The notes: generated from the letters alone by a model not told the origin. DNA of 64,000 nucleotides from Pseudomonadota bacterium (GCA_043825735.1 JBDRRP010000062.1:1-64000); one strand, 5' to 3'. Numbered from the stretch's first letter, positions 36,061 through 63,060 are shown. Translations and numbers: made by a program.

Positions 36061-37022
36061 CCCCGGACATCAGCATCATCATCGTCACGTATCAGGCCGC
36101 CATCTATATCGATGCCTGCCTCGAATCGCTGAACCGACAGACCGCGGGCGGGTATTCGGTGGTCATCGTCGACAACGGATCGACGGACGGAACGGTGGGC
36201 CGGGTTCGGCGCCACATGGCGGATCGCCGCGAGATCCATCTCATCGAAAACAGGGAAAACCTGGGATTCGCACGCGCCAACAATATCGGCATCCGCTATG
36301 CACTGCACCGCTTGGGCACGAAAGCAGTCTTCTTGCTGAACCAGGACACCGTCTGCGCAGACGACCTGCTGGAGAAACTGCACTATTGGGCCCAAAGGGA
36401 ACCGGGGGCCGTTCTGGGCCCCAAAATCCTGATCAAAACGACAGGCCGTATCTGGTGGATCGGCACCCATGTGTTCACCCTCAAAGACCTGTTTCAAACG
36501 CCACGGCTGGCCCTCGGTTGCCAGATCGACAAGGAAGCGCCGGATCACTTCTTCCATGACGCGCCGGCCGCCGTTGCGGCGATCGTCGGTTGTGCGTTGA
36601 TGATTCCACGAACAGTCCTTGACGACGTCGGCCCGCTGGACGAACGCTTTTTCATGTACGGAGAGGATCTGGATTTCTCACTGCGGCTGCAAAAGAAGGG
36701 GCTCCGGATGCTCGCCGTCCCCGATGCGGTGGTCTATCACGATGTCCAAAGGGAGACCGAGGCCCTGGGGCCCCGCAACAGGATGCGGGCCATCAGGCGA
36801 TATGTCCGATATTTTCTCGGTTCGTTGAGGGTACTCCAAAAGCACTATTCCATAGGATTTGCCGCTGTGTGGATCGCGCGGATGCCCGTTGCTGCCGCCT
36901 ATGAAATTGTCAGGAGGGTATTAGGCAGATTAAGCGCCGGCGCCGCGGGAAGGTTTACGCGCCCCACAGGATGTTCCAGTGCAGATAGAGCCACGCCCCG
37001 TATTCCGACAGGACCCATTTGA
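36057..37022 (+). CDS. Glycosyltransferase family 2 (rhamnosyl/GlfT-like subgroup)
   Basis: SIIIVTY, VDNGSTD, NLGFARANNIG, LLNQD, GCALMI, LDERFFMYGEDLD; ATG 36057. Confidence 0.88.
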   Translation: MTPDISIIIVTYQAAIYIDACLESLNRQTAGGYSVVIVDNGSTDGTVGRVRRHMADRREIHLIENRENLGFARANNIGIRYALHRLGTKAVFLLNQDTVCADDLLEKLHYWAQREPGAVLGPKILIKTTGRIWWIGTHVFTLKDLFQTPRLALGCQIDKEAPDHFFHDAPAAVAAIVGCALMIPRTVLDDVGPLDERFFMYGEDLDFSLRLQKKGLRMLAVPDAVVYHDVQRETEALGPRNRMRAIRRYVRYFLGSLRVLQKHYSIGFAAVWIARMPVAAAYEIVRRVLGRLSAGAAGRFTRPTGCSSADRATPRIPTGPI

Positions 37023-37620
37023 TCTGGCGGCCTTCCGTCCACCATTGCCCGGGTGAATACGGATCGCTCCGGGCCGCCACCGTCATCACTTGAAACGCCT
37101 CGGGCCAGATTGCTCGCCAGATATAGCGTGCCCTGCGGGTGTGCGACTTGCTGGTGGTAATGATCAACCGGGACAGACCCCGCCCCTGTAATTGCGCCCC
37201 CACCGCCCGCGCCTCGCTGAAGGTGTCATAGACATCTTCGGCACTGATGGTCACGATATCCTTCCGCGGCACCCCAAGCAGTTCCAGAATCCGCACCCGC
37301 TCCTCGTACCACGGGCAGCAGGGGGTGAATCCCCTCTTTTCGAGGGCACGCAAGGCCGCCGTCTTCCGGTTGCCGTTGATGATCACTGTCTTGACGTACC
37401 CCTCCCGATACAGGTTTGCGGCTTCCATCAACCGGGGATAGTAGGCCATCCCCGTATTCAGCACGACAACGGCATCCGCAGCCTCGGGGGGGCTGTCGGC
37501 AATGAGAAATTCGCCGAGCACCATCAACAGACGCCCCGATACCGCCACCAGCAGCACAACGGCCGCGGTCAGGGTCAGCACCACTGCCGCCCGTTTCTTC
37601 CCACGGGTCAGGGTCATCAT
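36955..37620 (-). CDS. YdcF/DUF218 (ElyC/SanA-like) protein with N-terminal TM
   Basis: MMTLTRG..TM..ADAVVVL, DTFSEA, IITTSKSHTRRA, LSEY; C-terminal part of track ORF 36955..38205. Confidence 0.8.
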   Translation of the reverse strand: MMTLTRGKKRAAVVLTLTAAVVLLVAVSGRLLMVLGEFLIADSPPEAADAVVVLNTGMAYYPRLMEAANLYREGYVKTVIINGNRKTAALRALEKRGFTPCCPWYEERVRILELLGVPRKDIVTISAEDVYDTFSEARAVGAQLQGRGLSRLIITTSKSHTRRARYIWRAIWPEAFQVMTVAARSDPYSPGQWWTEGRQIKWVLSEYGAWLYLHWNILWGA

Positions 37621-39047
37621 CGCCCTCCGTGCATCCGGATGGTCTTCAGCAGGCTTTTCAGCGACCGGAACACTCGCCGGATCTCGTCCATGTCGTTCAT
37701 GTGGGTCAGGGTCTGGAGGATATACTTCGGTCGGAAGTAGAACTCGCGGTAGGCCCTGGCGAGAATCGGCTGCAGTTCTTTGCGCGACACGCCCACCACT
37801 TTCACCACCGGCCCGCAAGTCATGTCGAACTCCTTGAAATCCCGGGCCACCAGCAGGCCGTTGGCTGTGGCGTATTCGTAGAGATCGGTCCCCGGGTAGC
37901 ACATGGCGATGGAGAACTGCACCTGGTCCGGAGACAGCTTCCGGGCGAAGGCGATGGTCTCCTCGATGGTCTCTCGCGTGTCGTAGGGGAAGCCGAACAT
38001 GAACCCGCCCAGCGCCTGAATCCCGTGGCGCTTGACCAGTCGCACCCCGATCTCGATCTGCTCCAGAGTCAGCCCCTTTTTGATCTTGTCGAGCACGGCC
38101 TGGGATCCGCTCTCGATCCCCAGGCGGATCATCTTGCATCCCGCCGCCCTCATCTCCCCCAACATCTCCGCGTCCAGATTGTCCACCCGCCCGTTGCAGG
38201 TCCATACCAGGTCCAATTTCTCAGATCGAAGCCGCTGGCAGAATTCGATGACCCGTGACTTGCGTGTTGTGAACGTGCCGTCGTCGATATTGACTTCCCT
38301 CAAGCCGTAGCGATCCACGAGTTGGTGAAGCTCGCCGAAGACATTGTCCAGGCTGCGCAGCCGCTGCTTGTGCCCGTACATGCTCTGGGGCCACAGACAG
38401 AAGGCGCAGTGGTAGGGGCAGCCCCGGGCGGTCATCATGTTCATGAACGGCCGCCGGGAGTACCACGCCTCCAGATACCAGTGCCACGGGACGGTCTCCC
38501 GATCCGGATAGGGGACCAGGTCCAGGTCGCTTTCCACCGCGCCATCGCCGTTGTCGCGGATCGTATCGCCGTCGCGGTAGGTGATCCCGCCGATGGCATC
38601 AAGATCCGGCCAGGCGGAAACCACGCCGGCGATCTTGGTGTCGAACTCGTGTCGAATCACCACGTCGATCGCCGGGCACAGATCCAATGCCTGCCGGTGG
38701 AAGTAAGTCACATGAGGCCCCCCGGCAAGAATCAGCGCCCCGGTGGCTGCCTTGAGAGCGGTCAGGCTTTCATAGTCAGCAGTACTGCTGGGCGTGGTGG
38801 TCTCCATGAACACCACATCCGGCGCGGCGGCTGCGGCCGCCGCCAGGGTCTGCGGCATGTCCAGATCCTGAATGACCGCATCGATATAAACCACATCGTG
38901 CCCTGCCGCGGTGAGTTGAGCCGCCGCATACCCCAAAAATATGGGATACTGGAGGAACTTGTCGCTCCGGTGTTTAATGATGCGGTTCTGGGACCGGGTC
39001 CCGTAGCCCTTACCGGGCCACGGCGGATTGATGATCAATACGCGCAT
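37617..39047 (-). CDS. B12-binding radical SAM protein (HpnJ-like N-terminus)
   Basis: MRVLIINPPW, YPIFLGYAAA, TTTPS, GPHVT, TARGCPYHCAFCLWP, GIESGS, YPGTDLY. Confidence 0.9.
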   Translation of the reverse strand: MRVLIINPPWPGKGYGTRSQNRIIKHRSDKFLQYPIFLGYAAAQLTAAGHDVVYIDAVIQDLDMPQTLAAAAAAAPDVVFMETTTPSSTADYESLTALKAATGALILAGGPHVTYFHRQALDLCPAIDVVIRHEFDTKIAGVVSAWPDLDAIGGITYRDGDTIRDNGDGAVESDLDLVPYPDRETVPWHWYLEAWYSRRPFMNMMTARGCPYHCAFCLWPQSMYGHKQRLRSLDNVFGELHQLVDRYGLREVNIDDGTFTTRKSRVIEFCQRLRSEKLDLVWTCNGRVDNLDAEMLGEMRAAGCKMIRLGIESGSQAVLDKIKKGLTLEQIEIGVRLVKRHGIQALGGFMFGFPYDTRETIEETIAFARKLSPDQVQFSIAMCYPGTDLYEYATANGLLVARDFKEFDMTCGPVVKVVGVSRKELQPILARAYREFYFRPKYILQTLTHMNDMDEIRRVFRSLKSLLKTIRMHGGR

Positions 39048-39915
39048 GGATGCTCCTGCTGCGGGATGCTGTCAGATAGCCGGCTGCCTGGGCGATAATG
39101 CTTATGGCCAGCAGGCTCACCACCCAACCCAACCGATGATATTGACGGGCCGCTCGTAAAACGTTGCCCGTGGACCACCGCCGTAGGGTAACAAAACGGC
39201 GCCGATCTTCGACGAGCCGGGAAAACACATAGCTGCTCATCCCCCGTTTGTACTGCCAGCGTAAAAATCCGGCGAAGTCCTCGCGGGCCGCGTGGGTTGC
39301 CACCATGTCCGGACAGTAGCGGATACGCCCGCCCGCCTGCAACAACCGGTAAGCCAGTAGGCTGTCTTCCCCCCCGGCAAAGGGAAACCGACGGTCAAAC
39401 CCGCCCAGGCGCTGAAATACCGCTGCCCGGACTGCACAGTTGCAGGTACTCAGACTAACGGTGAGGCCGTTTGCCGACACCGGCCAAATGTTTTCAAAAC
39501 CCACGGATCCGCCGGCGGGAAACCCCAACGCGGAAATGGCATCGCCCAAGACGGTGGATGGTGCGATCAACACCCGCCCCATGAGGGCCTCTACCCGGGT
39601 CTCGGACAGATGCCGGTCGATGGCGCCGGTCCAGTCCTTATCAATTCGGCAGTCGCTGTCCGTGAAGGCCAGGATGTCGCCAGTAGCCGCCGCCGCCCCT
39701 GCGTTGCGCGCTGCAGCCGGCCCCCGGTTGGGGGATTGTCGAAGAATGAGGACATTATCACCGCAGGCCGCCCGATGGGAACCGTCGGTGGACCCGTCAT
39801 CCACCACGATGATCTGGTCCGGTGGGCGTCGTTGACGGTGCAGGTCGGAAATCAGCAGCGGTAGCCGGTTGACGTCGTTAAATACCGGAATGATGATCGA
39901 AATGCGGGCGCTCAC
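39010..39915 (-). CDS. Glycosyltransferase family 2
   Basis: SIIIPVFN, VDDGSTD, GPAAARNAG, FTDSDC, GGFD..GED; GTG start 39915 after GGAG. Confidence 0.85.
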   Translation of the reverse strand: MSARISIIIPVFNDVNRLPLLISDLHRQRRPPDQIIVVDDGSTDGSHRAACGDNVLILRQSPNRGPAAARNAGAAAATGDILAFTDSDCRIDKDWTGAIDRHLSETRVEALMGRVLIAPSTVLGDAISALGFPAGGSVGFENIWPVSANGLTVSLSTCNCAVRAAVFQRLGGFDRRFPFAGGEDSLLAYRLLQAGGRIRYCPDMVATHAAREDFAGFLRWQYKRGMSSYVFSRLVEDRRRFVTLRRWSTGNVLRAARQYHRLGWVVSLLAISIIAQAAGYLTASRSRSIHARIDHQSAVAR

Positions 39916-40036
39916 CGATTTTCTCCGGCAGATTTTCCAATCGCCGCCGCCCCAGGATATGAACGCCTGCGCTGACACCCCCTTGTCTCGGGGAGCGCGT
40001 CGATGAACGGATTCGACCACGCATCCATAGTCTTTT

Positions 40037-40918
40037 TCACTCCCTGCCCTCGTGCCGTTCCCTGCGGCGCTCAAAGCGCATCTGGGATATCTGCTCGGAA
40101 ATCATGCCCATTAAAAACACAATGATCGAGGAGTTGAACAGCAGGGCGCTCATATTGGTGAATCGCCCCTCCAATGTAAACGTGTACAGGTACCACACGG
40201 CTCCCAAAAAAAACATGGAAACGCTGATGGGTAAAAAGACCCGCATCGGGGAAAACAGCGTACAGATACGCGTGATAATCATAAAAAACCGCACCCCATC
40301 CTTTATCAGGGAAATCTGGCTCTTGCCGCTGGTCCGCCGCTCGGTTCGAATCGGCACGTATTTTAAGCTCAGGCCGGTGCGCAACACGGCCAAGGTCATG
40401 GTTGTCGGGTACGAATAAGTATTGGGCAACAGGTAGATCATACTGCGGGCCACCGGAGCCTTGATGGCCCGGAACCCGCTGGTCAAGTCCTTGATTGGGA
40501 ACTTGGCCACATAGGAGGCAAAGCGGTTGTACACGGCATTGCCAAGCGCCCGCCCCAGCGATGCCTGGTCTTGGAAGGCGCGTGCACCCACTACCAGATC
40601 ATATTCCGGCAGCAGCGCCAGCATTCGGGAAATGTCTTTGGGGTCGTGTTGCCCGTCACCGTCCATAAACACCAGGACTTCGCCAGAGGCCATACGGATA
40701 CCGCTCTTGATCGCGGCCCCGTTGCCGATGTTGTAGGGATGAGAATACACCCGAGCGCCGCTGTTTTGGGCGTTAGCGGCGGTCTGGTCCGTAGAGCCAT
40801 CATCGACGACGATAATCTCTGCCTCCGGATACTGGCTGCGAACCGCCGTCACCAGGCCGCCGATGGTATGCGCCTCGTTGAAGGTCGGTATGATGACCGA
40901 AACCGTGGGTGCTGGCAT
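40037..40918 (-). CDS. GT2, polyprenyl-phosphate sugar synthase type with C-terminal TMs
   Basis: IPTFNEA, VDDGSTD, NIGNGAAIKSG, MDGDGQH, DLTSGFRA, two C-terminal TM helices. Confidence 0.88.
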   Translation of the reverse strand: MPAPTVSVIIPTFNEAHTIGGLVTAVRSQYPEAEIIVVDDGSTDQTAANAQNSGARVYSHPYNIGNGAAIKSGIRMASGEVLVFMDGDGQHDPKDISRMLALLPEYDLVVGARAFQDQASLGRALGNAVYNRFASYVAKFPIKDLTSGFRAIKAPVARSMIYLLPNTYSYPTTMTLAVLRTGLSLKYVPIRTERRTSGKSQISLIKDGVRFFMIITRICTLFSPMRVFLPISVSMFFLGAVWYLYTFTLEGRFTNMSALLFNSSIIVFLMGMISEQISQMRFERRRERHEGRE

Positions 40919-41485: not shown

Positions 41486-41497
41486 GATTTCTATCCC

Positions 41498-41625: not shown

Positions 41626-43308
41626 TTATTCTCTGCCTCCACGCTGCTGTGCTTTCCTCACTATCATCAACACATACCCCTTGGATGCCAATAGTGTTTC
41701 AGTCCAACTGGAGAAGAATTCAGCGGTTACCACCAATTGCTGTGCCGATAGATTGTCCGTCAGCCACCGGTTGAGCAGCGGTTCGTATATCAGCAGATAT
41801 TCATGACCGCTCTCAGTTAAACGTGTGGCAATCGACTCCGGCGAAGATGCATCGCGGATGGCACGTAGTAATGTTCCATTGCCGTCCTGAACGGGCAAGT
41901 CACTATAATAAAATCGCCCCCCCATGAAAAAACTCAGCAGCGAAGCCCCTTGAGGTAAATGCCGGTTGGCATATCGAAACAGTTCATATTCTGGGCGATG
42001 GGCGACGATGTATTCATCCCGCGACATCCGACCGCTGAGATATTCCATCGGAGATACTCTGCCGTAAAGGTCTGCGAGGTATCTTACATTCAGGGCCAGC
42101 ATGCACAGTAGTACGACGGCAAACGCACCGCCCATCAGATTTCCCCGGAGGCTGGAAACAGCTAGCACCGAGCGTATCTTCTGAGCGACCCCGTGAAGCC
42201 CGAAGACACTCAGGATAACCAACGGCGGCACTGCCGGCAGAATCCACCGAGTCCGCATGTCGATCTGGAAAAAAACAATAAGGATATAGAGCACGGCAAA
42301 TACCAGCCAGATGGTGTTTTCACGACGGTGGCGCACCGGTTGTGCGCGCCACGTAAGCAATGCAAGCAGCGGCAACACCAGCAGATACGGATTGAGCGCA
42401 CCGTCAAAGAACTGCGGGTTGTCATCCGCCCCCTGCAAGAATATCCTGATAGGTACCAGCACGATCATCCACCACGGTTCGCCAAACGCCAATCGACGGT
42501 ATGAAAAATGATCCAGCCGAGGCGAGGCCGGAACGTCTGGCAGAAAACCTGCTGTTGCCGGGGGATTGAAAATGCTCTGAAACAGCGGATATACAGGGTT
42601 TCCGGTCCACAGGGCATTTCGAATAGCCCACGGCGAGAAAACCGCCACGGCGACAAACAGAAACAGCGCTGCCGGCAAAAATGCCTTCGCACTGGCCAAC
42701 CCGTGAAGACGGTTCCTGCGAACATACACAAACGCGGTCATTAGAAACACCAAGCACAATACGATCAACCCATTGTACTTGGTGCCCATGCAGAGTCCGC
42801 AGAAAACGGCCGACAACACCAGATAACGTTCGGCAAATCCATTTTCCGTCCATTTTACAAAGGCCATTAGCGATACCGTCGAAAAGAAGAGCAGTCCCAG
42901 GTCGACATAGGCCACCGTGGACAAACGAACGATGACCGGCAGAGAAAGAAACAGCAGCCCTCCGATCGCTGCATAGGTGGCTCCCAAGCGTTTCCGCAGG
43001 TAGTTAAACAACACCAATGCCGTCAACAGGCCGAAAGTCAAATGAATAATTTTGGGAAGAATATCGTTTCCGAAAAAAAGGGGGATGGCGTAAAGCAGGT
43101 CGAGATTCATCGGGTAATAGGAAAACAGGATGTGGGGGATCTCGTAGATGCCGCCGTGGGCCAGATAGAGCTTCGGGACCAGGAGATGGTGGTTCAACGC
43201 GTCTCTACTCACCGGCGGCACCGATGCCATGCCAACAACGATCCCGATCAAGATCGCGGCTGCAAGGGTCAATACAATGATCCCGATATGTTTTTTATTC
43301 GTCCCCAT
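41626..43308 (-). CDS. Multi-TM GT-C glycosyltransferase (ArnT/PMT-like)
   Basis: PP..RDALNHHL, SYYP, AYVDLG, GTKYNG, RNALWTGNPVYP, RWILP; start set at ATG 43308. Confidence 0.75.
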   Translation of the reverse strand: MGTNKKHIGIIVLTLAAAILIGIVVGMASVPPVSRDALNHHLLVPKLYLAHGGIYEIPHILFSYYPMNLDLLYAIPLFFGNDILPKIIHLTFGLLTALVLFNYLRKRLGATYAAIGGLLFLSLPVIVRLSTVAYVDLGLLFFSTVSLMAFVKWTENGFAERYLVLSAVFCGLCMGTKYNGLIVLCLVFLMTAFVYVRRNRLHGLASAKAFLPAALFLFVAVAVFSPWAIRNALWTGNPVYPLFQSIFNPPATAGFLPDVPASPRLDHFSYRRLAFGEPWWMIVLVPIRIFLQGADDNPQFFDGALNPYLLVLPLLALLTWRAQPVRHRRENTIWLVFAVLYILIVFFQIDMRTRWILPAVPPLVILSVFGLHGVAQKIRSVLAVSSLRGNLMGGAFAVVLLCMLALNVRYLADLYGRVSPMEYLSGRMSRDEYIVAHRPEYELFRYANRHLPQGASLLSFFMGGRFYYSDLPVQDGNGTLLRAIRDASSPESIATRLTESGHEYLLIYEPLLNRWLTDNLSAQQLVVTAEFFSSWTETLLASKGYVLMIVRKAQQRGGRE

Positions 43309-43348
43309 CCCCTTTTCCCGGTTGCTCGGCAAGCACAGAGACAGATTC

Positions 43349-46300
43349 CTACTCAACAAAATCTGATAGCGATTTCGATGCATTTTTATTGAAAAGATCA
43401 TAATCCCGTTCAGCCTGGGCCAATCGGTGATTTTTCGTCATCCGGTAAACATCGCGCCGGTAAGTGAGAAAACCCGCTTCCCAGGGAACGTCCGGTTCGA
43501 ACAAAGCCAAAACTTCGGCGCCTTTCTCATATCCGCCCAAAGAAGCCACCCTCAGCAGCAGCCGCATTCGATATTCCGAGTACATTCCGACAGAAAACTG
43601 CGGCGTCAGCAGATTCATCAAGCGCTTGATATCGGCGCCATCCTGACGCGCCAACTGTTGGGCGATATCGAGCGCGGGCAACACGCAATAGGCACTGTGC
43701 CAGGGGTCCTCGCGCAGACGTAGGATTGTTCTCTCCAAATGAGCCATGGCGGCCGCCATGTCCGAGGCGTGCCAAAAATAAACCGCCGTGATGGCTTCGG
43801 CATCGGTGGGCCGCGTGCGTTTTAGGATGCGGATGTCTTCCAGGGCGCTGGCGTCACCTGCCGTGGCCTTTGCCATGGCCGACACCAGATAATCGGTGGG
43901 CTCGACCGGTTGAAAACGACCACCGGCGACGAGATCCTGCAATGCCTTGAACTGTTTCCGGACAAACCGCCCATAGGCTTCGATCCGTGCATTCTGGCCG
44001 GGCACAGGCGCCTCGGGCAGACTGGCGCCGCCGATCTCCAGCAGTTGCGCGAGCGATGCTTCCTCCTGGACCTTGTCCCAGGCAACCGTCGACGGATCGA
44101 TGGACGGGCGATGGTGTTGGGTTTCCATGGCCAGTGTCAGCAAGTCCTGGATCTGAAAAAACCGGTTGGCGCCGAGGGTCCTTGCAAAATCGAACTCGAT
44201 CTGCATGCGATCGTCGGTGTTCATCCACCAGTCCGGATGCTGTGTGCGAGAGAGCAGACCCGCAAATTCACCGTTCGCCACATAACGGGACAAAAATCCT
44301 TCCACCCCGGTGGTGTGCCAGGTGTTGAGCAATGCCGAATAAAACGGCTCGCTCGCCAGTCTGGTCGCCAGCGCCCCGCGGTTCATGCGCATGGGCGTCA
44401 TCGAACACAGCAGCACCAGATCGTTGGTCTTTGTCCGCCAGGTGTCGATGTACGGAAAAACGCCCGAAAGCGTCACGTAAATGGACTTGATGGTCCTGGG
44501 TGCGATTTCATAGGCCTGAACCCACTGCGTGAAAATGCCCCCCGGGGCCATCCGTTTGACCGCCTCGCGATAAAATTCGACAGTATACAAACTGGCAATG
44601 CCGGCCCGATAAGGGTTGGACGGCTCCGAGAAGATCAGATCATAGGTCTGCTCGCTGGTCGTCAGTATTTCCCGGGCGTCATCGAAAATGATGTTCACCT
44701 TCGGATTGTTGAGCACATCCTGGTTGACCGGAGTGCAGACCCGAGCCACTTCAGCGATTCCCGGTTCGATCTCCACCACGTCCACACGCGTCATGGATGG
44801 CACGCGCGCCAACCACCCGGCGGTGCTGCCGGTGCCAAGACCGATCACCAGCGATCGCTTTGGCTCAGGATGAATGGCTGCGCCGATGAGCCCACAGGTG
44901 ACCTGGGTGGCCGCATCCCCGACAGCGTGGCCATCGACCTTGCCGTTGATCACGAAGGCATACCCATTGGCGAGGATCAGGCCGATGGCACTTTCCTTTC
45001 CGTCCATTTCCCAGAGCAGATTACGCCGGGTGTGTGCCATCTTATCCTGCATCTCGTTTGGGCTTATATTTGCGAGTGCCAGACGGCCAGCGCCGATCGG
45101 GGAATGCCGCCACGCGGCGGTGGGCCCGCTGGCCAAAAACACCAGCACTGCTACAGCCGCCGCCGCGGCCGATGCGAGCACCACCGGCCAAACGCTCTGT
45201 TTACAGCTGGCGACATAGGCGGCCGCCACTGAGAGCAACAGCAGTATAACAACAGCCAGCCGCCAACATCCTGGTGCAGAAAGGACCGTCATCAATCCGA
45301 AGCCACTGGCAAGGGCGCCGGTGATGGCACCGGCCGTATTGAACGCATAGGCATTGCCCGTATGGCGACCGATGTCTGCGTCACCGCGGCCCAAAAGAGC
45401 GATGATCAGCGGGAACTGGTAGCCAGCGGCCACGGATGCGGGGAACACGACAACCACGGCCACCAGACCATATGAGAGCACCTGCCCCGGCAACCCGAGG
45501 CCCTGGAGGGGGTGAATAATGGCCGCAAAAACCCCGATCCAGTCGCCCAGCAGGTAGGGCACGGCCAGCAGCAGGGCCTCCACGCCACAGCTCACCCCGA
45601 AAACCATCACCCCCCTGCCGGCAGCCCCGCCGACCAGAGCGTATAGGCCGCCACCAACGCCGATGCCCGACAGCGCTACGGCGAGGATGAGACCATAGCT
45701 GTAAGTTGTCCCACCCAAAATGGGAGAGAGCATTCGGTACCAGACCAACTCCATGAGAAAAAAGACAAAACCGGTGGTGAATGCCGCCACGTATATAAAC
45801 CAGGCTGACATCATGGTTTGCCCAAGGCCATCCCGGATTCGATTTGCGTCACCGGTGTCGTTTATGGACGCCACCGGCGTTGAAGGCATCCTTTGAGGGA
45901 ACTTCCACGCCGCCACTGCCACCAGCAGGTTCAGCAAAGCCGCAATGCGCAGTGTGTTCTGGAGACCGAAGATTTCGATCATCCAGAACGTGGTGATCAT
46001 AACACCCATCACGGCCCCGGCCGTATTCATCCCGTAAAGGAGCGCCGTACGCTTGCGGTCAGCATCGGCAGCGGTCTCCAGCGAGCGCACCACAGCGGGC
46101 AGGGTCCCGCCCATAGCGAAAGTCGCCCCGCCGAGAATTATGGTGCTCAACAGCAGCCGGGCCAGGGTACCCCCGACCATTCCCATGGCCATAGTCCCGC
46201 CGGCCGCTGCGTACAGATGCCGTGCGGCGTTGATCAGAAACGGTGACACCAGCGCCAGGCCGGCGATGAGAAACTCGAGCCTGGCATACAAGCGCATAGG

Positions 46301-47384: not shown

Positions 47385-47556
47385 GGGGCAGGTCCTCTCT
47401 ATCCTGGTCTCGGGCCGCAAAATAAATAAACCCGGCACTTCAACTACCACAGCCCCGGCAGCAAAATCCAGGAGAGCTCAAAAATGGCAGGTTGTAGCGC
47501 AACTCAATTGAGCATCATTATAGCCGACGTTGTCCGATGCAGCCATAGAATGGACC

Positions 47557-49632: not shown

Positions 49633-49651
49633 TTCGATAGTTCTCTGACGC

Positions 49652-51697: not shown

Positions 51698-51833
51698 AAG
51701 CGCGCCCTTTTGACTGCCTCACCGGATTTCCCGGGCACCGTTTTCATCCTTTCGTTCCTGTCCATGGTCTGGTCTTTTATCTGATTTCCCGGGATGTTGC
51801 AACCGACTGTGGGATGTGTTAGGTCTCCCTTTC

Positions 51834-55450: not shown

Positions 55451-57475
55451 CTATCCGTCCCGGTCAGACACAAGGCGTCCCCAGCTTTCAGGCGGACCAT
55501 TCAGTGCGCGGTCCAGTTCTCTGGCCGATACATGGTAAATCAGAATGGAATAGCCTACGTATGCATCCGGTTCACGCTGTTTCAGGGCGGCGCACAGACG
55601 GGCGAACTGTAACAGGCGCAGCTGACCGGCAATGTATTGGATTTTCTCACTGCTCCCCCAGGTGTCACTCAGCCGCTGCCTGGCCTGCGGATCGTCACCA
55701 GCCGTCCGAAGGTCTTCGGCCATCTTACGGGCCATGGTATAGGCCCGTTCGTAGTCAGGTTTCCAGCCACCGGAGAAACCATAGACCTGCTGGAGTTCGG
55801 TGGCGCTGATGCAGTAATCGCCTGGCCCGAGTGTCGTGGCGAATCTTCGCCACTGGCGCATCCAGGTTAGATTCCGGACTTTAATAATCCGTGCTGTCAG
55901 GCGGTAGAAAGCAGGGCTCGCTGTACCGAAATAGGCGAGATAGACCGGTTGCTGCCGGGCGTTCTCTCTTTGACGGATGTCGATCCAGGTCTTCAGACCG
56001 GGAAGGTCCTGCCCCCAGTCCAGAGAACTTTCCACCAGCAGACGGTATCCTCGGCGCGGTCCACCGGCCGCCGCATTAAAAAAGGCCAGGTAATGAGGCC
56101 AGATGGCGAGCGACTCGGCCATAAAGACGCCCAGGGCCAGAATCGGCACAAGCCGCACGAGCATGCGCCGGTGCCGAAACCATCGCCCCCCGGCACCGGC
56201 AAAGATGAACAGGGCCGGATAAAGGGGCAGTATGTGTCGATGGCCGATGTTAATGCTCGATGAAACAGCGACTGTTGCGTAAACCGCGAACAAAATACCC
56301 AACGGCCAAAGCTCGTAGAGAAAAAATTGTTTCTTTCTACCGGCTATCGCGGCAACGGCCAGCAGTAGTAAAGCAAATCCCCCAATAGGTGTCTTGACGG
56401 CAAAGCAAAATGGGAAAAACCGCCACCCCCCCGTTTCGCTGTATCGACCGTCCATGAAGGTCGGGCGCTGCTTGGCCATGTTGAGCACGAAACTCAATCC
56501 GTAGAGATAGGCCTCCGGCAGCAACCGGTAGTCCCTGCAGAGCCGGATGACGGGCTCAGCAGCACCGCTTCCCGCCAGTTGCGCTTCCCATTTCACGAAG
56601 GAAAGATGATTTTCTGTCGGCAGGCCGGCGGCGGCGGAAAACCGAAATCCATAGTACCCCCAGATGGCGCCCCAACAAACCACGGCCGCAGCAAGGCTGG
56701 CTGCCAGGAGAACGGCTGCTTGCTTGCCATGGTTGTCGACGTGGAACTTGATCCCCAGCCGCAGTGGGCGGGCCGGCCGCTGCGCCAGTCTTACCAGCCC
56801 CATGATCAGGGCCATGGGTACGATGAGGGCACCGGACATTTTTGAAAGCATCAGTCCTGCCGTGGCCGCACCGGCCCAGAGAATGGTTGCGCGGTCAACC
56901 CGGTGCATCAAGGCCCAGAGGGTGCGCACGGCCGCCAGAAAAAACAGGGCCGAGGCCGTATCTGAAGTGGTCAAACGCCCGTGGGCCAACAAGGTCGGGC
57001 TGAAAGCGAACAGCGTCAGAGAGACGAGGGCGCCGTGAAATCCGAAAATCTCTTCAGACCACGAAAAAATCAGAAGGCCCATGAGAAGGCTCAGGCAGAC
57101 GATCATGACCCGGCCGGCAAAGAGCATCCGGCCGGCGTCGTTACCCCGCTCGAAAAAAAAGATATGGGAGGCCATCCAGGTATTTTGCGCCATCTTCTCA
57201 TCGGGCTCGGGAAAATCAAGGTCCATAAAGAGAAGGGGCAGCGCCGCCCAGCGTTGTGGCAGATTGCCGTTTTCAGGCTGGTAGCGATAATCGTTCCGGG
57301 TCCAGTAACTATAGCCCGTGGTCAGATGGATCAACTCGTCATAGGTGTTTGATTTTTCGAAAACGCTGGTGACGGCAAGAAGGCCGTGGCAGGTCAGCAG
57401 GGCCACCACGACCCAGCGCCGAAAGCTGTGCGAAGGTCGCCCGGCGTCGTTATGTTCAAGCGATGCCTGATCCAT
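55451..57475 (-). CDS. GT-C glycosyltransferase (ArnT/PMT family)
   Basis: SNTYDELIH..GY, LAHGRLTTSD, SKMS, IGHRHILPLYP, YLAFFN, ESSLDWGQDL. Confidence 0.82.
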   Translation of the reverse strand: MDQASLEHNDAGRPSHSFRRWVVVALLTCHGLLAVTSVFEKSNTYDELIHLTTGYSYWTRNDYRYQPENGNLPQRWAALPLLFMDLDFPEPDEKMAQNTWMASHIFFFERGNDAGRMLFAGRVMIVCLSLLMGLLIFSWSEEIFGFHGALVSLTLFAFSPTLLAHGRLTTSDTASALFFLAAVRTLWALMHRVDRATILWAGAATAGLMLSKMSGALIVPMALIMGLVRLAQRPARPLRLGIKFHVDNHGKQAAVLLAASLAAAVVCWGAIWGYYGFRFSAAAGLPTENHLSFVKWEAQLAGSGAAEPVIRLCRDYRLLPEAYLYGLSFVLNMAKQRPTFMDGRYSETGGWRFFPFCFAVKTPIGGFALLLLAVAAIAGRKKQFFLYELWPLGILFAVYATVAVSSSINIGHRHILPLYPALFIFAGAGGRWFRHRRMLVRLVPILALGVFMAESLAIWPHYLAFFNAAAGGPRRGYRLLVESSLDWGQDLPGLKTWIDIRQRENARQQPVYLAYFGTASPAFYRLTARIIKVRNLTWMRQWRRFATTLGPGDYCISATELQQVYGFSGGWKPDYERAYTMARKMAEDLRTAGDDPQARQRLSDTWGSSEKIQYIAGQLRLLQFARLCAALKQREPDAYVGYSILIYHVSARELDRALNGPPESWGRLVSDRDG

Positions 57476-57548: not shown

Positions 57549-58280
57549 TTACGGAATGCGGTAGCGCCCTAGAAGATGGTTTTGCCAAATCTGCACTGTT
57601 TCGAGGATGGTCACCAGGGAATCCCGGCCCACCCGGACTGCTGAATCGAAGCTGTGATACCAGTCCACGGGTACTTCCGCCACCGCGTAGCCGAGTTTTT
57701 TGGCGATGAAGAGCAATTCCGCGTCGTATCCCCACCGGTCGATGCGCGCGCGGGAAAAAATGTCCGCGGCGGCCGCTGCGGAAAACCCTTTCAGCCCGCA
57801 AGTAATATCGCTGACCGGCAGTCCGAAACCCCAGAGAATTATTCGGCGGTATACGGCGCCCATAAACTGCCGCAATGCGCCTTCTCGTATTCGAAGGGCC
57901 GAGGCTTCCAGGTGCCGTGACCCGATGACGACAGGGTCGCCTTGCGCCAACCGGTCAAAAATCCGTCCGGCAAATTCAATCGGCACGGCCAGATCCGCGT
58001 CCATGAAAAGGCGACGCTCCCCTTGTGCCAACATCATACCGGTGCGCACCGCATGCCCCTTTCCCCGATTGACACCGGAGTCGATCAAACGGATGCGGTC
58101 GTGGTCGCCGGCCAAGCGACGCGCGATGGCTGCACTCGTATCGGTGCTGCCGTCGTTGACCAGGAGCAGTTCCCATTCCCGGTGACAGGAAGCCAGATAG
58201 GCGGCCACCCGACCGACGTTGGCTTCCAGGCAACGGGCCTCGTTGAAAAGTGGTATCACCAAGGAGACCTTCACACTCAC
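57549..58280 (-). CDS. GT2, dolichyl-phosphate beta-glucosyltransferase-like
   Basis: IPLFNEA, NRGKGHAVRTG, FMDADLA, GSRH, DITCGLKGF, WGYDAELL, EVPVDW. Confidence 0.9.
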   Translation of the reverse strand: MSVKVSLVIPLFNEARCLEANVGRVAAYLASCHREWELLLVNDGSTDTSAAIARRLAGDHDRIRLIDSGVNRGKGHAVRTGMMLAQGERRLFMDADLAVPIEFAGRIFDRLAQGDPVVIGSRHLEASALRIREGALRQFMGAVYRRIILWGFGLPVSDITCGLKGFSAAAAADIFSRARIDRWGYDAELLFIAKKLGYAVAEVPVDWYHSFDSAVRVGRDSLVTILETVQIWQNHLLGRYRIP

Positions 58281-58283
58281 GGT

Positions 58284-60536
58284 TCACCCCTTGTCAGACA
58301 ATCCGTTATCGTAAACTTCGCCGCCGGTTTCCCCTGCCGGTTCCCCGCGCCGGCGGCGCATTCTGTATAGACCGTATCCGACCGACACAACAATCAAAAT
58401 CAAACCGATGCCGGTCACTCGGCGACCGGTCACATAGGAGGCCGGGAGGAATTCGAGCGCGATTCGGTGCTCTCCGGCCGGAAGGTCGACAGCTATGAAA
58501 GTATCCATAAAAGGCCTGGCGGAGGCGGCCTTTCCATTGATCCGGACCCGCCAGCCGTCATGGAAGGATTCGGTGATGACGACGGTTCCTGCGCTGCCGG
58601 TGCTGCATTGCAACAGCCGCCGGTTCGGCGTGGGGCGAGACAGGGTGACGGTGGCTTCCGGCCGGTGGCCAACACTGGAAATAAAGTAGGCCACCGGCAG
58701 TGTATCCGTGATTTCATAAAGAAAAATTCGCTGGTCCCGCCATCTGCCGCCATGAAAATCAGTCGCGTTCTGGGTATCTGTGGCCACCAGGCGAAGTCCA
58801 GCGTGATCCATCGCTTCGGTGGCGATCAGATGGGTAACCGCGGCAAGACGGAACAGTTCGGGCCGCGCAAATCCGAAGGGGCGAATGCCCCAGAAAACGC
58901 GATCCGGAGACGCGGTGCCGTCCATTCGCGTGATAAACCGCAATGAGCGCAGCAGGGCCATCGGCTCGTAGCCCCCGACCCTGTCGATACCCGCGATCAC
59001 AAACACCGGATCTTCAATCACTGAGATCAGATTGCGTCTCAACCGCTCGGGTTGAATCACCGCCACCCGGATCTGGCGAGGATCTGCAGCCAAGGCCGCC
59101 ATTATGCCTGCCGGGGGTCGCATTGTTTCAGTCCGGTGCCCCTCAAGCAGATATGGCGCCAGCAAGAGCGGATCAGCCAGGAGCCAGCCAACCAGCAGCC
59201 AGAGGCTCAACCGGCCGGGACGCAAAAAGAAAAGGGCAAAAAAGGCAACGGACAGGGCCAGCGCAGCGCCGAAACGCCAATTTGCATCGGGGCCATCCGA
59301 TCCTACTACCGGAATCCATACCACAACCGTCAGCATCAGGCCCAGTGCCGTCAGCATCAGGACGTTTCGACCGCGTTTTGCCGCCGGTCCGTCCAAAAGC
59401 GCCTGAAGACCCCAACCCGCGGCAATGGCCATGGTTACCAAAGTAAAAATGAAGTATCGGGAAGGGTTGACCAGCATTGAAAGGCCAGGCGTGGACCGGA
59501 CAATCCGGTCCAGGAAGGGAATGGCCGGCCCCATGCTCAGTAGTGCCGGCAGCACCCCCCAGACCAGCACAAAATCCCATTGTCGCAATCTCGATCCCAC
59601 GCCCAGAATCGCGAGGACAAGGCCGCCAATGCCGATGTACCCACAAAGCTCCCAGGCGTAGTCCTGAGCAAGGAATTCTGGCCGGATCAGAACGAGTATC
59701 CACTGCCGCAGGTCCCAGGAGAAATGAAACCCCATGGACGCTCCCGCCGGAAGCGGGCGCGAGGAGAGCAAGGTCTGTTCCATCGAAGGGAAAACCTGAA
59801 CTGCGGCCAGAACGAAAAAGACGATGCCGGCCCAGGCCAGATGTCCGACGAAATCCCTCCAGCCGCCTTCCGTTCTTTCCCTTATCAACCGGATGGCGCC
59901 ATGGACCGACACCAGACCGTATGCCATGAAGGCGTATTGGGGCGTGCCGCTGAGCAGGCTCAAGGCAAGGAGCGCCCCGAGCCATGTGGCGCGCGCAAAA
60001 CCCCGACTGCGCCACAGGCGAAGACAAGCCCAGAGCACCATGGGAAGCCAGCAGATGGCGTGCAGGTACCCTATCCAGCCCGCATTGATGTAGTAAAGAA
60101 TGCGGCCATTGAGCATAAAGACGCCACCCGCCGTCAGGCTGGCCGCTGACCCGCAGCCGGTCTCCCGTGCCAGGAGCCATGCACCATATCCGGCCAAGGC
60201 CATATGCAGGGCCTGCCCGATCCACAGCGCTGTAAAGAAAGGAAAAATCCAAAACACTGCGTTGAGCGGGTAAAACAAGGCGTGCTGAATGTTGCCCACC
60301 GCAGGTTGCCCCAATAGGAGGTGGGGGTTCCAAAGAGGGAATTCACCGCACTGTTGGATGCTCTGGTACTGGAATGCCTTGAGGCCGTAGAAGTAAGGAA
60401 TCAGGTCCGAGGCGGGGCCGGAAAAAAAATCGACGCGACCCAACCAAATGGGCGCATGTATCGCCAGTGGCATGAGAATAAAGACTGCCAAGGAAATTAT
60501 GGCGCCGCCTCGGCGTGACCGATGAAAGGGGGTCAC
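58284..60536 (-). CDS. YfhO-family GT-C membrane protein
   Basis: SDL, FPLWNPH..GQP..NIQ..FYP, PSRY, ESFHDGWRVRING, GEHRI. Confidence 0.83.
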   Translation of the reverse strand: MTPFHRSRRGGAIISLAVFILMPLAIHAPIWLGRVDFFSGPASDLIPYFYGLKAFQYQSIQQCGEFPLWNPHLLLGQPAVGNIQHALFYPLNAVFWIFPFFTALWIGQALHMALAGYGAWLLARETGCGSAASLTAGGVFMLNGRILYYINAGWIGYLHAICWLPMVLWACLRLWRSRGFARATWLGALLALSLLSGTPQYAFMAYGLVSVHGAIRLIRERTEGGWRDFVGHLAWAGIVFFVLAAVQVFPSMEQTLLSSRPLPAGASMGFHFSWDLRQWILVLIRPEFLAQDYAWELCGYIGIGGLVLAILGVGSRLRQWDFVLVWGVLPALLSMGPAIPFLDRIVRSTPGLSMLVNPSRYFIFTLVTMAIAAGWGLQALLDGPAAKRGRNVLMLTALGLMLTVVVWIPVVGSDGPDANWRFGAALALSVAFFALFFLRPGRLSLWLLVGWLLADPLLLAPYLLEGHRTETMRPPAGIMAALAADPRQIRVAVIQPERLRRNLISVIEDPVFVIAGIDRVGGYEPMALLRSLRFITRMDGTASPDRVFWGIRPFGFARPELFRLAAVTHLIATEAMDHAGLRLVATDTQNATDFHGGRWRDQRIFLYEITDTLPVAYFISSVGHRPEATVTLSRPTPNRRLLQCSTGSAGTVVITESFHDGWRVRINGKAASARPFMDTFIAVDLPAGEHRIALEFLPASYVTGRRVTGIGLILIVVSVGYGLYRMRRRRGEPAGETGGEVYDNGLSDKG

Positions 60537-62356
60537 CGGGACGCTCCAGGGGCCGCCTCTTTGACGCCCGCATCGATCCTGGCTGCCAGATCGGGCCGCT
60601 TGCGTTTTTCCGCTTCGGGCAACCGTGCAAAGATGACGGCCGCGCTCTTTGGGTCATTCAGGTTGAGGCGGGTCAGTGCCAGGTTGGCGAGCAGCCCGGC
60701 CGATTCAGGGGTCAGGGTCAGCCCCTTTTCCAGGGCCTTGGCGGAGTCGGTGTAATTGCCGGTCATGGCGTAAGCGCTCCCAAGGTTCCCCCAGAATGAG
60801 GGCTCTCCGGGCGCCAGGGAAACCGCCTTTTCAAACAGGAGCACGGCCTGCGGCACACGCCCCAGCCGGGTCAAGGCCATGGCCTGGTTGTTGATCAGGC
60901 GGCCACGGTTTTCCCTGCTCATGAACCTGTCCGAGATCGTATCCAGGACAGCCAGTGCCCTGTCCGGCCTGCCGGTTTCAATGAGCAGTGCCGCGTAGTT
61001 GATGTGGTTATCCACCATGTCCGTCCGGGCAGCGATCCCCTGTTGATAATAGGCTTCTGCCGTGGCAAGGTCGCCGCGGCTGTGAAGCAGTTCGCCCAGC
61101 CCGCCGGCGTAGTCAAGATTGCCGAAGACGGTCACCTCCCGTTCGAAGAATGAGGCTTCGTCGTGCCAGAGGTATTGATTCAGAAAAAGGGTGTATCCGG
61201 TAAGACCGGCAATGACCAGCGCCGTCAGGCAGGCGCCGGCGCGCCGCCATTTGGGCAGGGCCGCCGGAGGACAAAAGGCAATCGCAAAAAAAGCCATGGG
61301 AAAATAAAGCCATCGCATGGAAATCAGGGAAACGGCGGAGGTCGGAAAGATGTTGAGGACGGGAAAAAGCCCCAACAGAAAGGACAACGTGCCCATGATA
61401 ACAGCGCGGTTTCTTCGAAGCCGCCATAGCAGCAGACATACCATGGCCAACCCGGCCAGGCTCGCGGCCACATCCCAAAAGATGCCGTCAGACGGGTAAT
61501 GAATCGAAAAGCTGTGCAGTCCGACCGGCAGAAAAACGAGCCGCAGATTGTACAGGATCAGATAGGGGACCGAGAGCAGGCGCACGAAAATATCGGCGCC
61601 GGCATTGGGCGAGAGGACGGCGCCGGTCGCCGATACCCGAAGCCAGAAATAGCCTATCAATACCGCGCAGAAAGGGAGATAACCGGCCAGTTCCGCACCA
61701 GGTCTTTGACGCCCGGCATCGAATGTTCTGTTCCATACAAACAGGATCGGCAGCACCATCACCCCGTATTCCTTTGAAAGCAGTGCCAGCGTGAAACAGA
61801 GCAGCGCCATGAAGCGGTTGACAGTGGCCCGGCCCGGGTCCCGTTCGGCGTAAAATAACAAGGCCAGCATTGAAAAAAGCGCGGCCATAATGTTGTTGCG
61901 CGAAGAAATCCAGGCCACGGCCTCGGTGTTGACCGGGTGCAGGGCAAAGATCAAGACGGCGGCCACACTCTGCCAGCCGTCGGTCAGATGACGGTGCAGC
62001 AATGCCAGCAGGGCCAGACAGACAAATAAGTGCAGGATCAGGTTTGTGGTGCGAAAACCGATCGGGTTGTTTCCCCACAGCCGATAGTCCAGAGCATAGG
62101 ATAAACTGACAAGGGGCCGGTAGTATCCCGTATGATAGTCACCCTGCCACTGGTCCCTGTCCAGGATCCCGTCCTCCTGGGAAAAATAGTCGCTTGGCGA
62201 TCTGATCTGTCGAATGAAGGTATTGTTTTCTATAAGAACGTGGTCGTCCAGCAGAAAGCCGCCGGTGAAAGTGGGGGTATAGGCCAGGATCGTCAGTACG
62301 GCAACGATGGCCCATTGTTTGAACAAAACCCAGGAATGTCGAGGCTGGTCATCCAT
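60533..62356 (-). CDS. TMTC-like GT-C membrane protein with C-terminal TPRs
   Basis: FLLDDHVLIENN, YYRPLV..SYALD, FALHPVNTEAVAWISSR, LSKE, RWLYFP, TPRs; start set at ATG 62356. Confidence 0.85.
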   Translation of the reverse strand: MDDQPRHSWVLFKQWAIVAVLTILAYTPTFTGGFLLDDHVLIENNTFIRQIRSPSDYFSQEDGILDRDQWQGDYHTGYYRPLVSLSYALDYRLWGNNPIGFRTTNLILHLFVCLALLALLHRHLTDGWQSVAAVLIFALHPVNTEAVAWISSRNNIMAALFSMLALLFYAERDPGRATVNRFMALLCFTLALLSKEYGVMVLPILFVWNRTFDAGRQRPGAELAGYLPFCAVLIGYFWLRVSATGAVLSPNAGADIFVRLLSVPYLILYNLRLVFLPVGLHSFSIHYPSDGIFWDVAASLAGLAMVCLLLWRLRRNRAVIMGTLSFLLGLFPVLNIFPTSAVSLISMRWLYFPMAFFAIAFCPPAALPKWRRAGACLTALVIAGLTGYTLFLNQYLWHDEASFFEREVTVFGNLDYAGGLGELLHSRGDLATAEAYYQQGIAARTDMVDNHINYAALLIETGRPDRALAVLDTISDRFMSRENRGRLINNQAMALTRLGRVPQAVLLFEKAVSLAPGEPSFWGNLGSAYAMTGNYTDSAKALEKGLTLTPESAGLLANLALTRLNLNDPKSAAVIFARLPEAEKRKRPDLAARIDAGVKEAAPGASR

Positions 62357-62525
62357 TGTCCTGTTCTTTCCCCCCGGTAGATCCGCGGCGCCGCCTTCCG
62401 ACGTTGGCGAATGAAGGCTTCCGCGCCAGAAAACGTGGATTCCGATTGCCAATAGACGCCGTAAAACGACGATGGTCAAGAGGGCATGTTGACCAGAAGG
62501 ACCGAACGGTTCAGACCAAGGGGCG

Positions 62526-62565
62526 AAAAAAAGGGAATCCGCCTGCACTGGTCAGGCGGATTCCC
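62526..62565 (-). terminator. Rho-independent terminator downstream of pilA
   Basis: 13-bp perfect stem GGGAATCCGCCTG/CAGGCGGATTCCC (62533-62565) followed on the minus strand by a 7-T run. Confidence 0.85.
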
Positions 62566-62673
62566 CCTTTCATATTCTTTCGTACCGTTTCGGTGCCGAG
62601 TGCTTGCGCTGATCGTGAAACTCGATTCACGCCCGCATTCGATCTCCGTCATTAGCTACATAGCTTGCGGTGC

Positions 62674-63060
62674 CTATGGTTTTTGCATGGAGGCGATGGC
62701 TCCGCCAGGCCCATGGACGGTCCAGCTATATTTGCCCGCGGTGTGATAGGCGGTCATGGTGTAACCGGAATTGCTGCCAGTAAGTGCCAGGGAGACGTTC
62801 TTGGTCAGGGACAGTGCCGGCAAAGCCACGGTACCGGTGGTCGCAGCAAAGGTCTTGTAGGTCATGTCGTCAACAAAGTAGGCTTCCTGTGCGGTCATCA
62901 TGTTTTTCATGTCGCTAAGGGATGCCGCGTCATAGGAGCGCTGGCGGTAGCTCACGAAGTTCGGGATGGCGATGGCGGCCAGAATACCGATAATCGCGAT
63001 AACGATCATCAGCTCGATCAGGGTAAAACCTTTGTCGTTGTTTCTCATTTTCTGAATCAT
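62674..63060 (-). CDS. pilA: Type IVa major pilin
   Basis: Basic leader ending [26 protein letters not shown] (E5); AGGAGG RBS; downstream of pilR with its own sigma54 promoter and terminator. Confidence 0.93.

Follow-up and report, generated by a model that had tools for sequence, protein, structure and literature searches.

In Pseudomonas aeruginosa Pa5196/PA7, type IV pilin is modified in the periplasm by TfpW, a D-arabinofuranosyltransferase of 646 residues (GenBank AAM52060.1) that adopts the glycosyltransferase fold C (GT-C) and has 11 predicted transmembrane (TM) helices. TfpW carries DDX in its first periplasmic loop, ends in a periplasmic tetratricopeptide repeat (TPR) domain, draws on polyprenyl-phosphate-D-arabinofuranose as donor and is encoded directly downstream of pilA, pilA-tfpW-tfpX being co-transcribed (bioRxiv 10.1101/2020.04.19.049825). 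A comparable domain combination occurs in the eukaryotic proteins TMTC1-4, protein O-mannosyltransferases acting on cadherins; a homologue of human TMTC3 from Deltaproteobacteria has been mentioned and full-length prokaryotic TMTC homologues have been called uncharacterised (PMC7801869). Here we analyze a stretch of 64,000 nucleotides (GCA_043825735.1, JBDRRP010000062.1:1-64000, contig C62, in the following termed the window) from an uncultured Desulfobacterales-like bacterium, in which a pilA-like gene is followed by an island encoding three TPR-bearing GT-C proteins (TPR-GT-C), further GT-C proteins and glycosyltransferases of family 2 (GT2) of the Dpm/ArnC type.

The pairing of a GT2 with a GT-C enzyme is itself well precedented. 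In streptococci, GtrB/PgtC2 and PgfS/PgfM1/PgfM2 consist of a GT2 and YfhO-family GT-C proteins that O-glycosylate Ser/Thr-rich protein regions from undecaprenyl-phosphate (Und-P) sugars; the Pgf genes cluster with those for their adhesin substrates and GtrB/PgtC2 glycosylates several membrane proteins (PMC12041528). In Desulfuromonadia, islands of 15-70 genes follow the genes for OmcE cytochrome nanowires and are described as containing GT2, GT4 and GT39 transferases, sugar-modification enzymes, methyltransferases, exporters and TPR proteins (PMC13712944, 2026). The window resembles these islands in placing a similar gene mix next to the gene for an extracellular filament subunit, but there the filament is a cytochrome and not a pilin and the organisms belong to another class of Thermodesulfobacteriota. 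To judge from its genes, the window also follows the logic of GtrB/GtrA/Gtr*, ArnC/ArnT and CsbB/GtcA/YfhO, in which a Dpm-like GT2 makes an Und-P-sugar and a GT-C protein transfers the sugar outside the cytoplasm. It differs from Gtr-type and streptococcal systems by the lack of a GtrA-type flippase in the window, by many modules side by side, by a Gram-negative host and by the predicted pilin substrate. A description of a pilA-linked TPR-GT-C island in Desulfobacterota was not found among the open-access papers searched for pilin glycosylation by such enzymes in Geobacter or Deltaproteobacteria. An initial annotation, made from the sequence alone, had proposed a system not yet described, whose logic would be alien to known pilin glycosylation; in view of TfpW and of the streptococcal and OmcE-island precedents this was overstated, and the island is a multi-enzyme, multi-paralogue form of a known mechanism rather than a new category. 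We read it as a set of predicted periplasmic glycosylation modules, comprising eight GT-C proteins and five GT2s, with type IV pilin as the likely main acceptor, a reading that we give an about even chance of being right.

The window is a single long glycan island, bordered by rpe/aroQ (294-1405) on one side and by pilR-pilA (62674-63998) on the other. The pilA gene (62674..63060, minus strand) encodes a type IV major-pilin-like protein of 128 aa that matches Pfam N_methyl at 6.5e-12 and PilA_Myxo at 4e-21, the latter under its cut-off; in translation, the prepilin leader ends at KG|FTLIELM and the C-terminal domain is Cys-free and Ser/Thr-rich. On the minus strand, pilA is followed by the genes for TPR-GT-C no. 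1, YfhO-like no. 1, GT2 a and a PMT_2-like protein; of the junctions between genes, the first three are overlaps or gaps of 3 nt. A plus-strand block of YfhO-like no. 2, GT2 b and a methyltransferase comes next, after which the minus strand continues with TPR-GT-C no. 2, TPR-GT-C no. 3, GT2 c, a fused protein of ~1051 aa and a PMT-like protein and then with a toxin-antitoxin-like pair, GT2 d, another GT2, a B12-binding radical S-adenosylmethionine (SAM) enzyme and a DUF218 protein. The initial annotation's inventory of pilA followed by three TPR/TMTC-like, two YfhO-like and two PMT-like GT-C proteins interleaved with four DPM-type GT2s is correct gene for gene, and the eighth GT-C and fifth GT2 it had placed at 9.5-12.0 kb lie at 10206-11987 and 9498-10202, respectively. 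The long open reading frames (ORFs) are over-extended at the 5' end, and starts were corrected for TPR-GT-C no. 1 and for an ORF of 1171 aa. The 64-kb window holds 5 of the 15 PMT_2 matches, two of the three YfhO matches and three of the eight TPR-GT-C matches of the 6.8-Mb genome, which exceeds what chance would place there.

TPR-GT-C no. 1 (607 aa; 60533..62356, minus strand) is encoded right beside pilA. Its AlphaFold2 model, built from an alignment of 45 sequences (predicted local distance difference test score, pLDDT, 89.9; predicted template modelling score, pTM, 0.87), comprises a GT-C membrane domain with a DD motif after TM1 and C-terminal TPRs. In a wide search with VIA-align, residues ~4-417 matched AglB (3waj; Z 20.0, 324 aligned residues, root-mean-square deviation 4.6), Pmt1/2 (6p2r; Z 19.9, 342 aligned), ArnT (5f15; Z 19.6) and Pmt4 (9e61; Z 19.0), with ALG12, PglB and STT3 ranked after these, while residues 400-607 align with TPR proteins. 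The GT-C match of this protein comes from the VIA-align wide search alone, since Foldseek with the whole model and a PDB profile search with the family alignment returned TPR proteins only. Residues D37 and D38, located right after TM1, are invariant across the 45 homologues, as are many further polar residues. TPR-GT-C no. 2 (681 aa; 49652..51697, minus strand; TPR Pfam and family matches) and no. 3 (737-aa ORF; 47557..49770, minus strand; TPR and weak PMT_2 matches) both carry an FDD motif after TM1, and in all three proteins the DD lies 2-13 residues past TM1; nos. 2 and 3 are predicted to share the GT-C fold by homology to the family only. A simple Kyte-Doolittle scan found ~6-9 hydrophobic segments in each of the eight GT-C candidates, all of which are polytopic membrane proteins.

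Compared by its described features, TfpW is the closest counterpart of TPR-GT-C no. 1, which likewise adjoins pilA, joins a GT-C domain to C-terminal TPRs and has DD in loop 1. The initial annotation had invoked TfpW as a contrast; this does not hold, as TfpW is itself a pilA-adjacent, TPR-bearing GT-C enzyme fed by polyprenyl-phosphate-arabinofuranose. Differences do exist: TfpW is a single enzyme, whereas the region downstream of pilA encodes three TPR-GT-Cs, four other GT-Cs and four Dpm-type GT2s; the proline-rich YX6PFX7P motif of periplasmic loop 4 of TfpW matches none of the three TPR-GT-Cs; genes of the DprE1/DprE2/DPPR-synthase type for arabinofuranose formation were not seen among the window ORFs scanned; and pilA of the window has its own terminator, whereas co-transcription is described for pilA-tfpW-tfpX. 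Like TMTC proteins, the TPR-GT-Cs begin with a GT-C domain that bears DD in loop 1 and end in TPRs, and the look-alike clusters (Atlas) for TPR-GT-C include a TMTC_DUF1736 cluster (0.92). Pfam TMTC_DUF1736 itself (PF08409, the TM7-TM8 loop), in contrast, is unmatched at E <= 0.01 in the window proteins and at E <= 0.1 in the window frames; furthermore, the predicted acceptor is pilin and not cadherins, and the lipid carrier would be bacterial.

One could also regard the TPR membrane proteins as non-catalytic, membrane-anchored pilus assembly factors resembling PilF, PilW or Tgl, with the GT2s serving unrelated pathways. Some database entries are indeed named 'Tfp pilus assembly protein PilF', and the TPR domain matches PilW (2vq2; Z 19.0) and PilF (2fi7; Z 17.2) among many other TPR proteins. 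These matches are generic, however, as dozens of unrelated TPR proteins score at Z 16-20, and such a role would leave unexplained the 400-residue membrane domain of GT-C fold with its invariant DD and many invariant polar residues, and also the matched GT2 partners that are conserved alongside. We consider this explanation extremely improbable.

The remaining GT-C proteins fall into two types. YfhO-like no. 1 (58284..60536, minus strand; its start overlaps the preceding stop) matches Pfam YfhO with 45.2 bits (cut-off 28.5) and also DUF2079, and YfhO-like no. 2 (51816..53966, plus strand) matches YfhO with 52.1 bits (cut-off 28.5); the YfhO matches cover only the C-terminal ~50-100 profile positions. 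The AlphaFold2 model of YfhO-like no. 1 (47 sequences; pLDDT 90.1, pTM 0.91) retrieved only GT-C enzymes within the top 40 ranks of a Foldseek search, among them AftD, STT3, PglB, AglB, EmbA/B/C, ArnT, AftA, DPY19, ALG12 and Pmt4, with a probability of 1.00 for AftD, STT3, PglB, Emb and ArnT. Together with the model of TPR-GT-C no. 1, this bears out the earlier assignment of these proteins to GT-C enzymes. The acidic motif is reduced to a single nearly invariant Asp (D29) in the YfhO-like proteins, and alignments between the YfhO-like and the TPR-GT-C families by hhalign were weak (probability 12%, E 0.0023) and were not used as evidence. The PMT_2-like protein of 674 aa (55451..57475, minus strand) scored 23.4 bits against PMT_2 in one scan and 29.8 bits, over the cut-off, in another; its paralogue on contig C107 matches PMT_2 at 2.4e-11. 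The PMT-like protein (591-aa ORF; 41626..43401, minus strand) matches Pfam PMT with 34.2 bits (cut-off 22.7; 2.6e-8) and PMT_2 at 4.6e-7, and a regular-expression search for the acidic loop-1 motif gave no match in it. The eighth GT-C (10206..11987, plus strand) belongs to PMT_2/PMT (PMT_2 at 5.1e-10, 40.2 bits). Single-sequence searches of the PDB with the two PMT-like proteins and this upstream PMT_2 protein yielded nothing meaningful (best E 0.29-0.34).

Five GT2s accompany these enzymes. GT2 a (57549..58280, minus strand), a soluble protein, and the fifth GT2 (9498..10202, plus strand) were assigned to the Dpm/ArnC type by Pfam, NCBIfam and profile comparison. GT2 b (53968..54669, plus strand) was so assigned by profile comparison and by its matches to AglJ (6.9e-35) and ArnC (1e-22), both subthreshold. 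The same three approaches identify GT2 c (46584..47450, minus strand) as Dpm-type, with orthologues 54-82% identical in pilA-linked islands, and GT2 d (40037..40918, minus strand) as Dpm/GtrB-type, the latter possessing two C-terminal TM helices as is typical of GtrB. A joint profile of the five GT2s matched ArnC (9bhc) at 8.5e-34 over positions 3-224 of 249, DPMS from Pyrococcus (5mlz) at 1e-33 and GtrB (5ekp) at 2e-25, in agreement with the polyprenyl-phosphate-sugar synthase type that had been ascribed to them, while other GT2s match the profile over the first ~100-120 positions only, that is, over the nucleotide-binding half. The best NCBIfam matches are AglJ, PpgS, ArnC, PgfS and a Dol-P hexose transferase, all under the equivalog cut-offs. 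The gene next to that for GT2 d (39010..40074, minus strand) encodes a GT2 of a different, MftF/EpsD-like type according to NCBIfam. The combination of lipid-phosphate-sugar synthases with GT-C proteins is well founded as a logic, from which we infer the chemistry, and the adjacent Dpm-type GT2s are what suggests that the GT-C enzymes would use polyprenyl-phosphate-linked donors. As a class of mechanism, periplasmic glycosylation from lipid-phosphate monosaccharides is in our judgment highly probable.

Conserved synteny with pilA across Desulfobacterota, the lack of which had been named as grounds for rejection, was indeed found. Of 20 pilA matches in 18 same-order genomes, 14 have homologues of the window's GT-C genes in the 20 kb that follow downstream, and in 10 of these loci (11 if the divergently oriented one in L034 is counted) a TPR-GT-C was the first GT-C gene beside pilA; one genome has five TPR-GT-Cs in a row there. 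Orthologues of the 591-aa PMT-like protein lie downstream of pilA in six of the 20 loci (seven with an end fragment of 206 residues in L034) and also in several loci found by way of the GT-C proteins. For the latter set, the family of TPR-GT-C no. 1 served as query against genomes of representative species, and 78 loci were kept, 24 from close Desulfobacterota-type organisms, among them Desulfobacteraceae, Desulfatiglandales and metagenome-assembled genomes of Smithella/Syntrophaceae, and 54 from distant ones; a Pseudomonas locus is not among the 78. Among the close loci with at least 3 kb of upstream sequence, 15 of 17 have a pilin within 5 kb upstream, and a recurring order is pilR, pilA, TPR-GT-C of the no. 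2 type (opposite strand), TPR-GT-C of the no. 1 type, GT2 c, PMT-like, GT2 d/b. In a set of 41 genomes, a pilin match was found no more than 3 kb away from 20 of the 134 TPR-GT-C matches, compared with ~0.4 expected for random placement (~48-fold excess), and 14 of the 37 best pilA matches have a TPR-GT-C within 3 kb. These counts come from kin genomes that are not independent, a match does not equal a gene, and neighbours go unseen where contigs are broken up; the counts denote a strong tendency and no formal test. The family as a whole is large: 796 relatives of one member protein at E <= 1e-5 among 7995 candidates scored stem from several phyla. A quick tree of 61 TPR-GT-C domains contains three paralogue clades with pilin-adjacent members in each, in a sample whose loci were picked by pilA or by similarity and in which many 'far' labels stand for short contigs; no statistic is drawn from this tree. 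Taken together with the TfpW precedent, the conserved synteny points to pilin as the principal acceptor, for which we see the probabilities as balanced.

A second pilus cluster in the same genome is of interest here. On contig C20 (1-16000; locus L051), an MSH-like/type II secretion system-like cluster encodes a secretin, an AAA_22 protein, an MshE-like ATPase, a PilC-like protein, a sigma-54 activator and pilins, and a TPR-GT-C of 620 aa, whose gene is the sole sugar-related one there, is encoded between the genes for the major and the minor pilins.

Quite a number of observations run counter to a dedicated pilin system. Six of the 20 same-order pilA loci lack a nearby GT-C gene, a pilin motif occurs in only two of the 54 distant loci (Omnitrophota, Planctomycetes and others) and only ~15-25% of the TPR-GT-C matches are pilin-linked. 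Four of the eight TPR-GT-C paralogues of the genome under study reside away from pilin genes, one of them beside TonB/ExbBD/porin genes with its own PMT and a GT2-GtrA fusion and another beside a Slam-like gene; TPR-GT-Cs in such places imply that the family has other acceptors too. The Ser/Thr content of the pilins gave no usable separation (0.285 for GT-C-linked versus 0.24 for unlinked pilins; n=25 and 5). At the locus itself, a strong intrinsic terminator 3' of pilA (62526..62565, minus strand), detected by a stem search and consisting of a 13-bp G+C-rich stem followed by T7 as read on the minus strand, and a gap of 317 nt to the first GT-C gene do not indicate co-transcription; a search of sequencing runs for 55400-63400 turned up no RNA data set. 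A GtrA-type flippase (PF04138) is absent from the window, the single genome match being fused to a GT2 on contig C107. Moreover, the island contains a Wzx/MATE-like flippase and cytoplasmic GT2s as found in polysaccharide clusters, which makes en bloc steps possible. The earlier exclusion of PglL/TfpO-type en bloc transfer therefore stands in so far as none of the four Wzy_C (PF04932) matches of the genome lies on contig C62, and falls short where the flippase and the cytoplasmic GT2s are concerned. In a relative with a complete genome of 2.1 Mb and 14 TPR-GT-C matches in total, six TPR-GT-Cs form a tandem array (G029:C1:811491-821700), none of them near the best pilA match.

The paralogues located elsewhere fit a general periplasmic system that O-glycosylates numerous proteins of the envelope or of the secretome, for instance cytochrome filaments, adhesins or others with Ser/Thr-rich regions, with pilin at most one client. 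Linkage to pilin genes is missing for half of the TPR-GT-Cs of this genome and for most of those in relatives, several membrane proteins are glycosylated by streptococcal GtrB/PgtC2, and GT2/GT39/TPR islands follow the OmcE nanowire genes in Desulfuromonadia. The ~48-fold excess of pilin adjacency and the conserved order of pilR, pilA and GT-C genes suggest, on the other hand, that at least the enzymes encoded next to pilA are specifically related to pilin, and the window scans revealed no cytochrome or adhesin gene. On balance, we deem such a general system unlikely.

The terminator and the flippase bring up a different possibility, namely that the modules decorate a polysaccharide or lipid (O-antigen, side chains of capsule or exopolysaccharide, lipid A) in the manner of Gtr, ArnC/ArnT and CsbB/YfhO, and that the proximity to pilA reflects the clustering of genes for surface structures. 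The island runs on into 34 kb of sugar-nucleotide genes with the Wzx/MATE-like flippase and cytoplasmic GT2s, and pilA has a terminator of its own. The YfhO and ArnT/PMT_2 families are best known from teichoic-acid and lipid A modification. The exopolysaccharide gene xapD (GSU1501) of Geobacter sulfurreducens presumably lies a few genes from pilA, judging from locus tags. Against decoration of a polysaccharide or lipid, the gene right beside pilA specifically encodes a TPR-bearing GT-C protein in many lineages, the second, otherwise sugar-free pilus cluster on C20 has one as well, and the scan of window ORFs revealed neither Wzy nor WaaL nor a phosphoglycosyltransferase of the initiating kind. 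The TPR domain is, moreover, a protein-binding module in TfpW, TMTC and OGT. We regard the polysaccharide or lipid alternative as rather unlikely, though it deserves to be kept in mind.

Further signals surround pilA. The terminator hairpin is situated inside a longer ORF of the next gene, so that 62356 is the most probable start of TPR-GT-C no. 1; the 607-aa database entry for this protein begins at the same position. Upstream of pilA, direct reading of the sequence reveals TGGCAC-N5-TTGC (63214..63228, minus strand), which we take to be a sigma-54 type promoter, and the C-terminal part of a PilR-like sigma-54 activator is encoded at 63396..63998 (minus strand; Pfam Sigma54_activat, AAA_lid_14 and HTH_8) by a gene that exceeds the window end. 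Beyond pilR, positions 64001-84000 of contig C62 (L057) carry genes for a dihydroorotase-like protein, a signal peptidase and other housekeeping functions; pilB, pilT, pilC and pilS are not present in this region, and pilR-pilA with the glycan island is thus separate from pilus assembly genes.

Some of the accompanying genes merit mention. The SAM-dependent methyltransferase (54691..55401, plus strand; Pfam) is kept together with YfhO-like no. 2 and GT2 b in relatives, its orthologue in locus L031 being 66% identical. The fused polytopic membrane/spermidine-synthase-like protein (43349..46504, minus strand) matches NF037959, fused MFS/spermidine synthase, with 92.5 bits (cut-off 40); the 1171-aa ORF most likely begins near 46504, which results in a protein of ~1051 aa with a membrane domain of ~10 TM helices, a spermidine-synthase-like domain and a long C-terminal region. 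It recurs in pilA-linked islands of other genomes (~5660-7680 in L042 and ~6215-8302 in L059) and could be a candidate flippase or aminopropyl-type modifier. Between the PMT-like gene and that for GT2 d, two overlapping ORFs (40935-41485, minus strand) of 89 and 94 aa resemble an antitoxin and a RelE/ParE-type toxin, as judged by eye.

The adjoining sugar-nucleotide and modification island (3389..37022, plus strand), delineated by a scan of the window ORFs, encodes DegT aminotransferases, UDP-galactopyranose mutase, NeuB/CMP-nulosonate synthase/PglD-like proteins and a GHMP kinase as well as three B12-binding radical SAM enzymes, one radical SAM-SPASM protein, methyltransferases, the Wzx/MATE-like flippase and further GT2s. 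A nonulosonic-acid module with a CMP-sugar synthetase-like gene, NeuB and a PglD-like acetyltransferase occupies 13430-15987, and near it are found DegT aminotransferases and UDP-galactopyranose mutase (6662-8074). The 64 kb contain four B12-binding radical SAM enzymes in all (8085-9467, 20169-21752, 33659-35140 and 37617-39047), the last of which, identified by Pfam and NCBIfam, is HpnJ-like and encoded on the minus strand; in addition, the radical SAM-SPASM protein is located at 16838-17911 and at least five SAM methyltransferases are present. This wealth of radical SAM enzymes and methyltransferases hints at heavily C- or O-methylated or otherwise unusual sugars. An ORF of 624 aa (21753-23627), which separates a B12-binding radical SAM gene from that for the Wzx/MATE-like flippase, was discarded as a candidate polymerase or oligosaccharyltransferase, as it has only one hydrophobic segment and is without Pfam or NCBIfam match. 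A PIN-domain (VapC-like) gene (1887-2294) directly past aroQ lies at the left island edge.

While the genes present, the folds of the GT-C proteins, the type of the GT2s, the positions of motifs and the conserved linkage to pilin genes were observed, we infer donors, flipping, identity of the acceptor and order of action as follows. At the cytoplasmic face of the membrane, every GT2 would charge undecaprenyl phosphate with a single sugar, for which the adjoining sugar-nucleotide genes at 3-37 kb would provide the nucleotide donors. The lipid-phosphate-sugar would then be flipped, for which the Wzx/MATE-like protein, the membrane half of the 1051-aa fusion and the TM hairpin of GT2 d are candidates, and the GT-C enzymes with their acidic motif after TM1 would transfer the sugars in the periplasm. 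The three TPR-GT-Cs may hold the protein acceptor by their periplasmic TPRs, as is the case for TfpW and the eukaryotic TMTC/PMT enzymes, and could thereby begin O-linked sugars on Ser/Thr of membrane-anchored pilin, while the YfhO-like and PMT-like enzymes might add or extend further sugars. Going beyond this scheme, one may speculate that bacterial TMTC-like TPR-GT-Cs are dedicated pilin O-glycosyltransferases in Desulfobacterota and that the island is a combinatorial, multi-donor periplasmic assembly line, in which three initiating TPR-GT-Cs and four extending GT-Cs, each supplied by an Und-P-sugar synthase of its own, assemble heterogeneous and in part methylated glycans on the pilus surface one sugar at a time, the diversification of paralogues being driven by pilus-specific phages. 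We put this forward as a tentative proposal that is more easily wrong than right.

The bacterial TMTC-like family is large, widespread and uncharacterised, and the pilA neighbourhood offers a concrete, testable acceptor for it. The modules are also candidates for periplasmic glycoengineering with lipid-phosphate monosaccharide donors. If pilin is indeed the acceptor, many sulfate-reducing and syntrophic Desulfobacterota would possess type IV pili that are heavily glycosylated independently of O-antigen, with consequences for how these bacteria adhere, aggregate and resist phages and for how pilus structures are to be interpreted.

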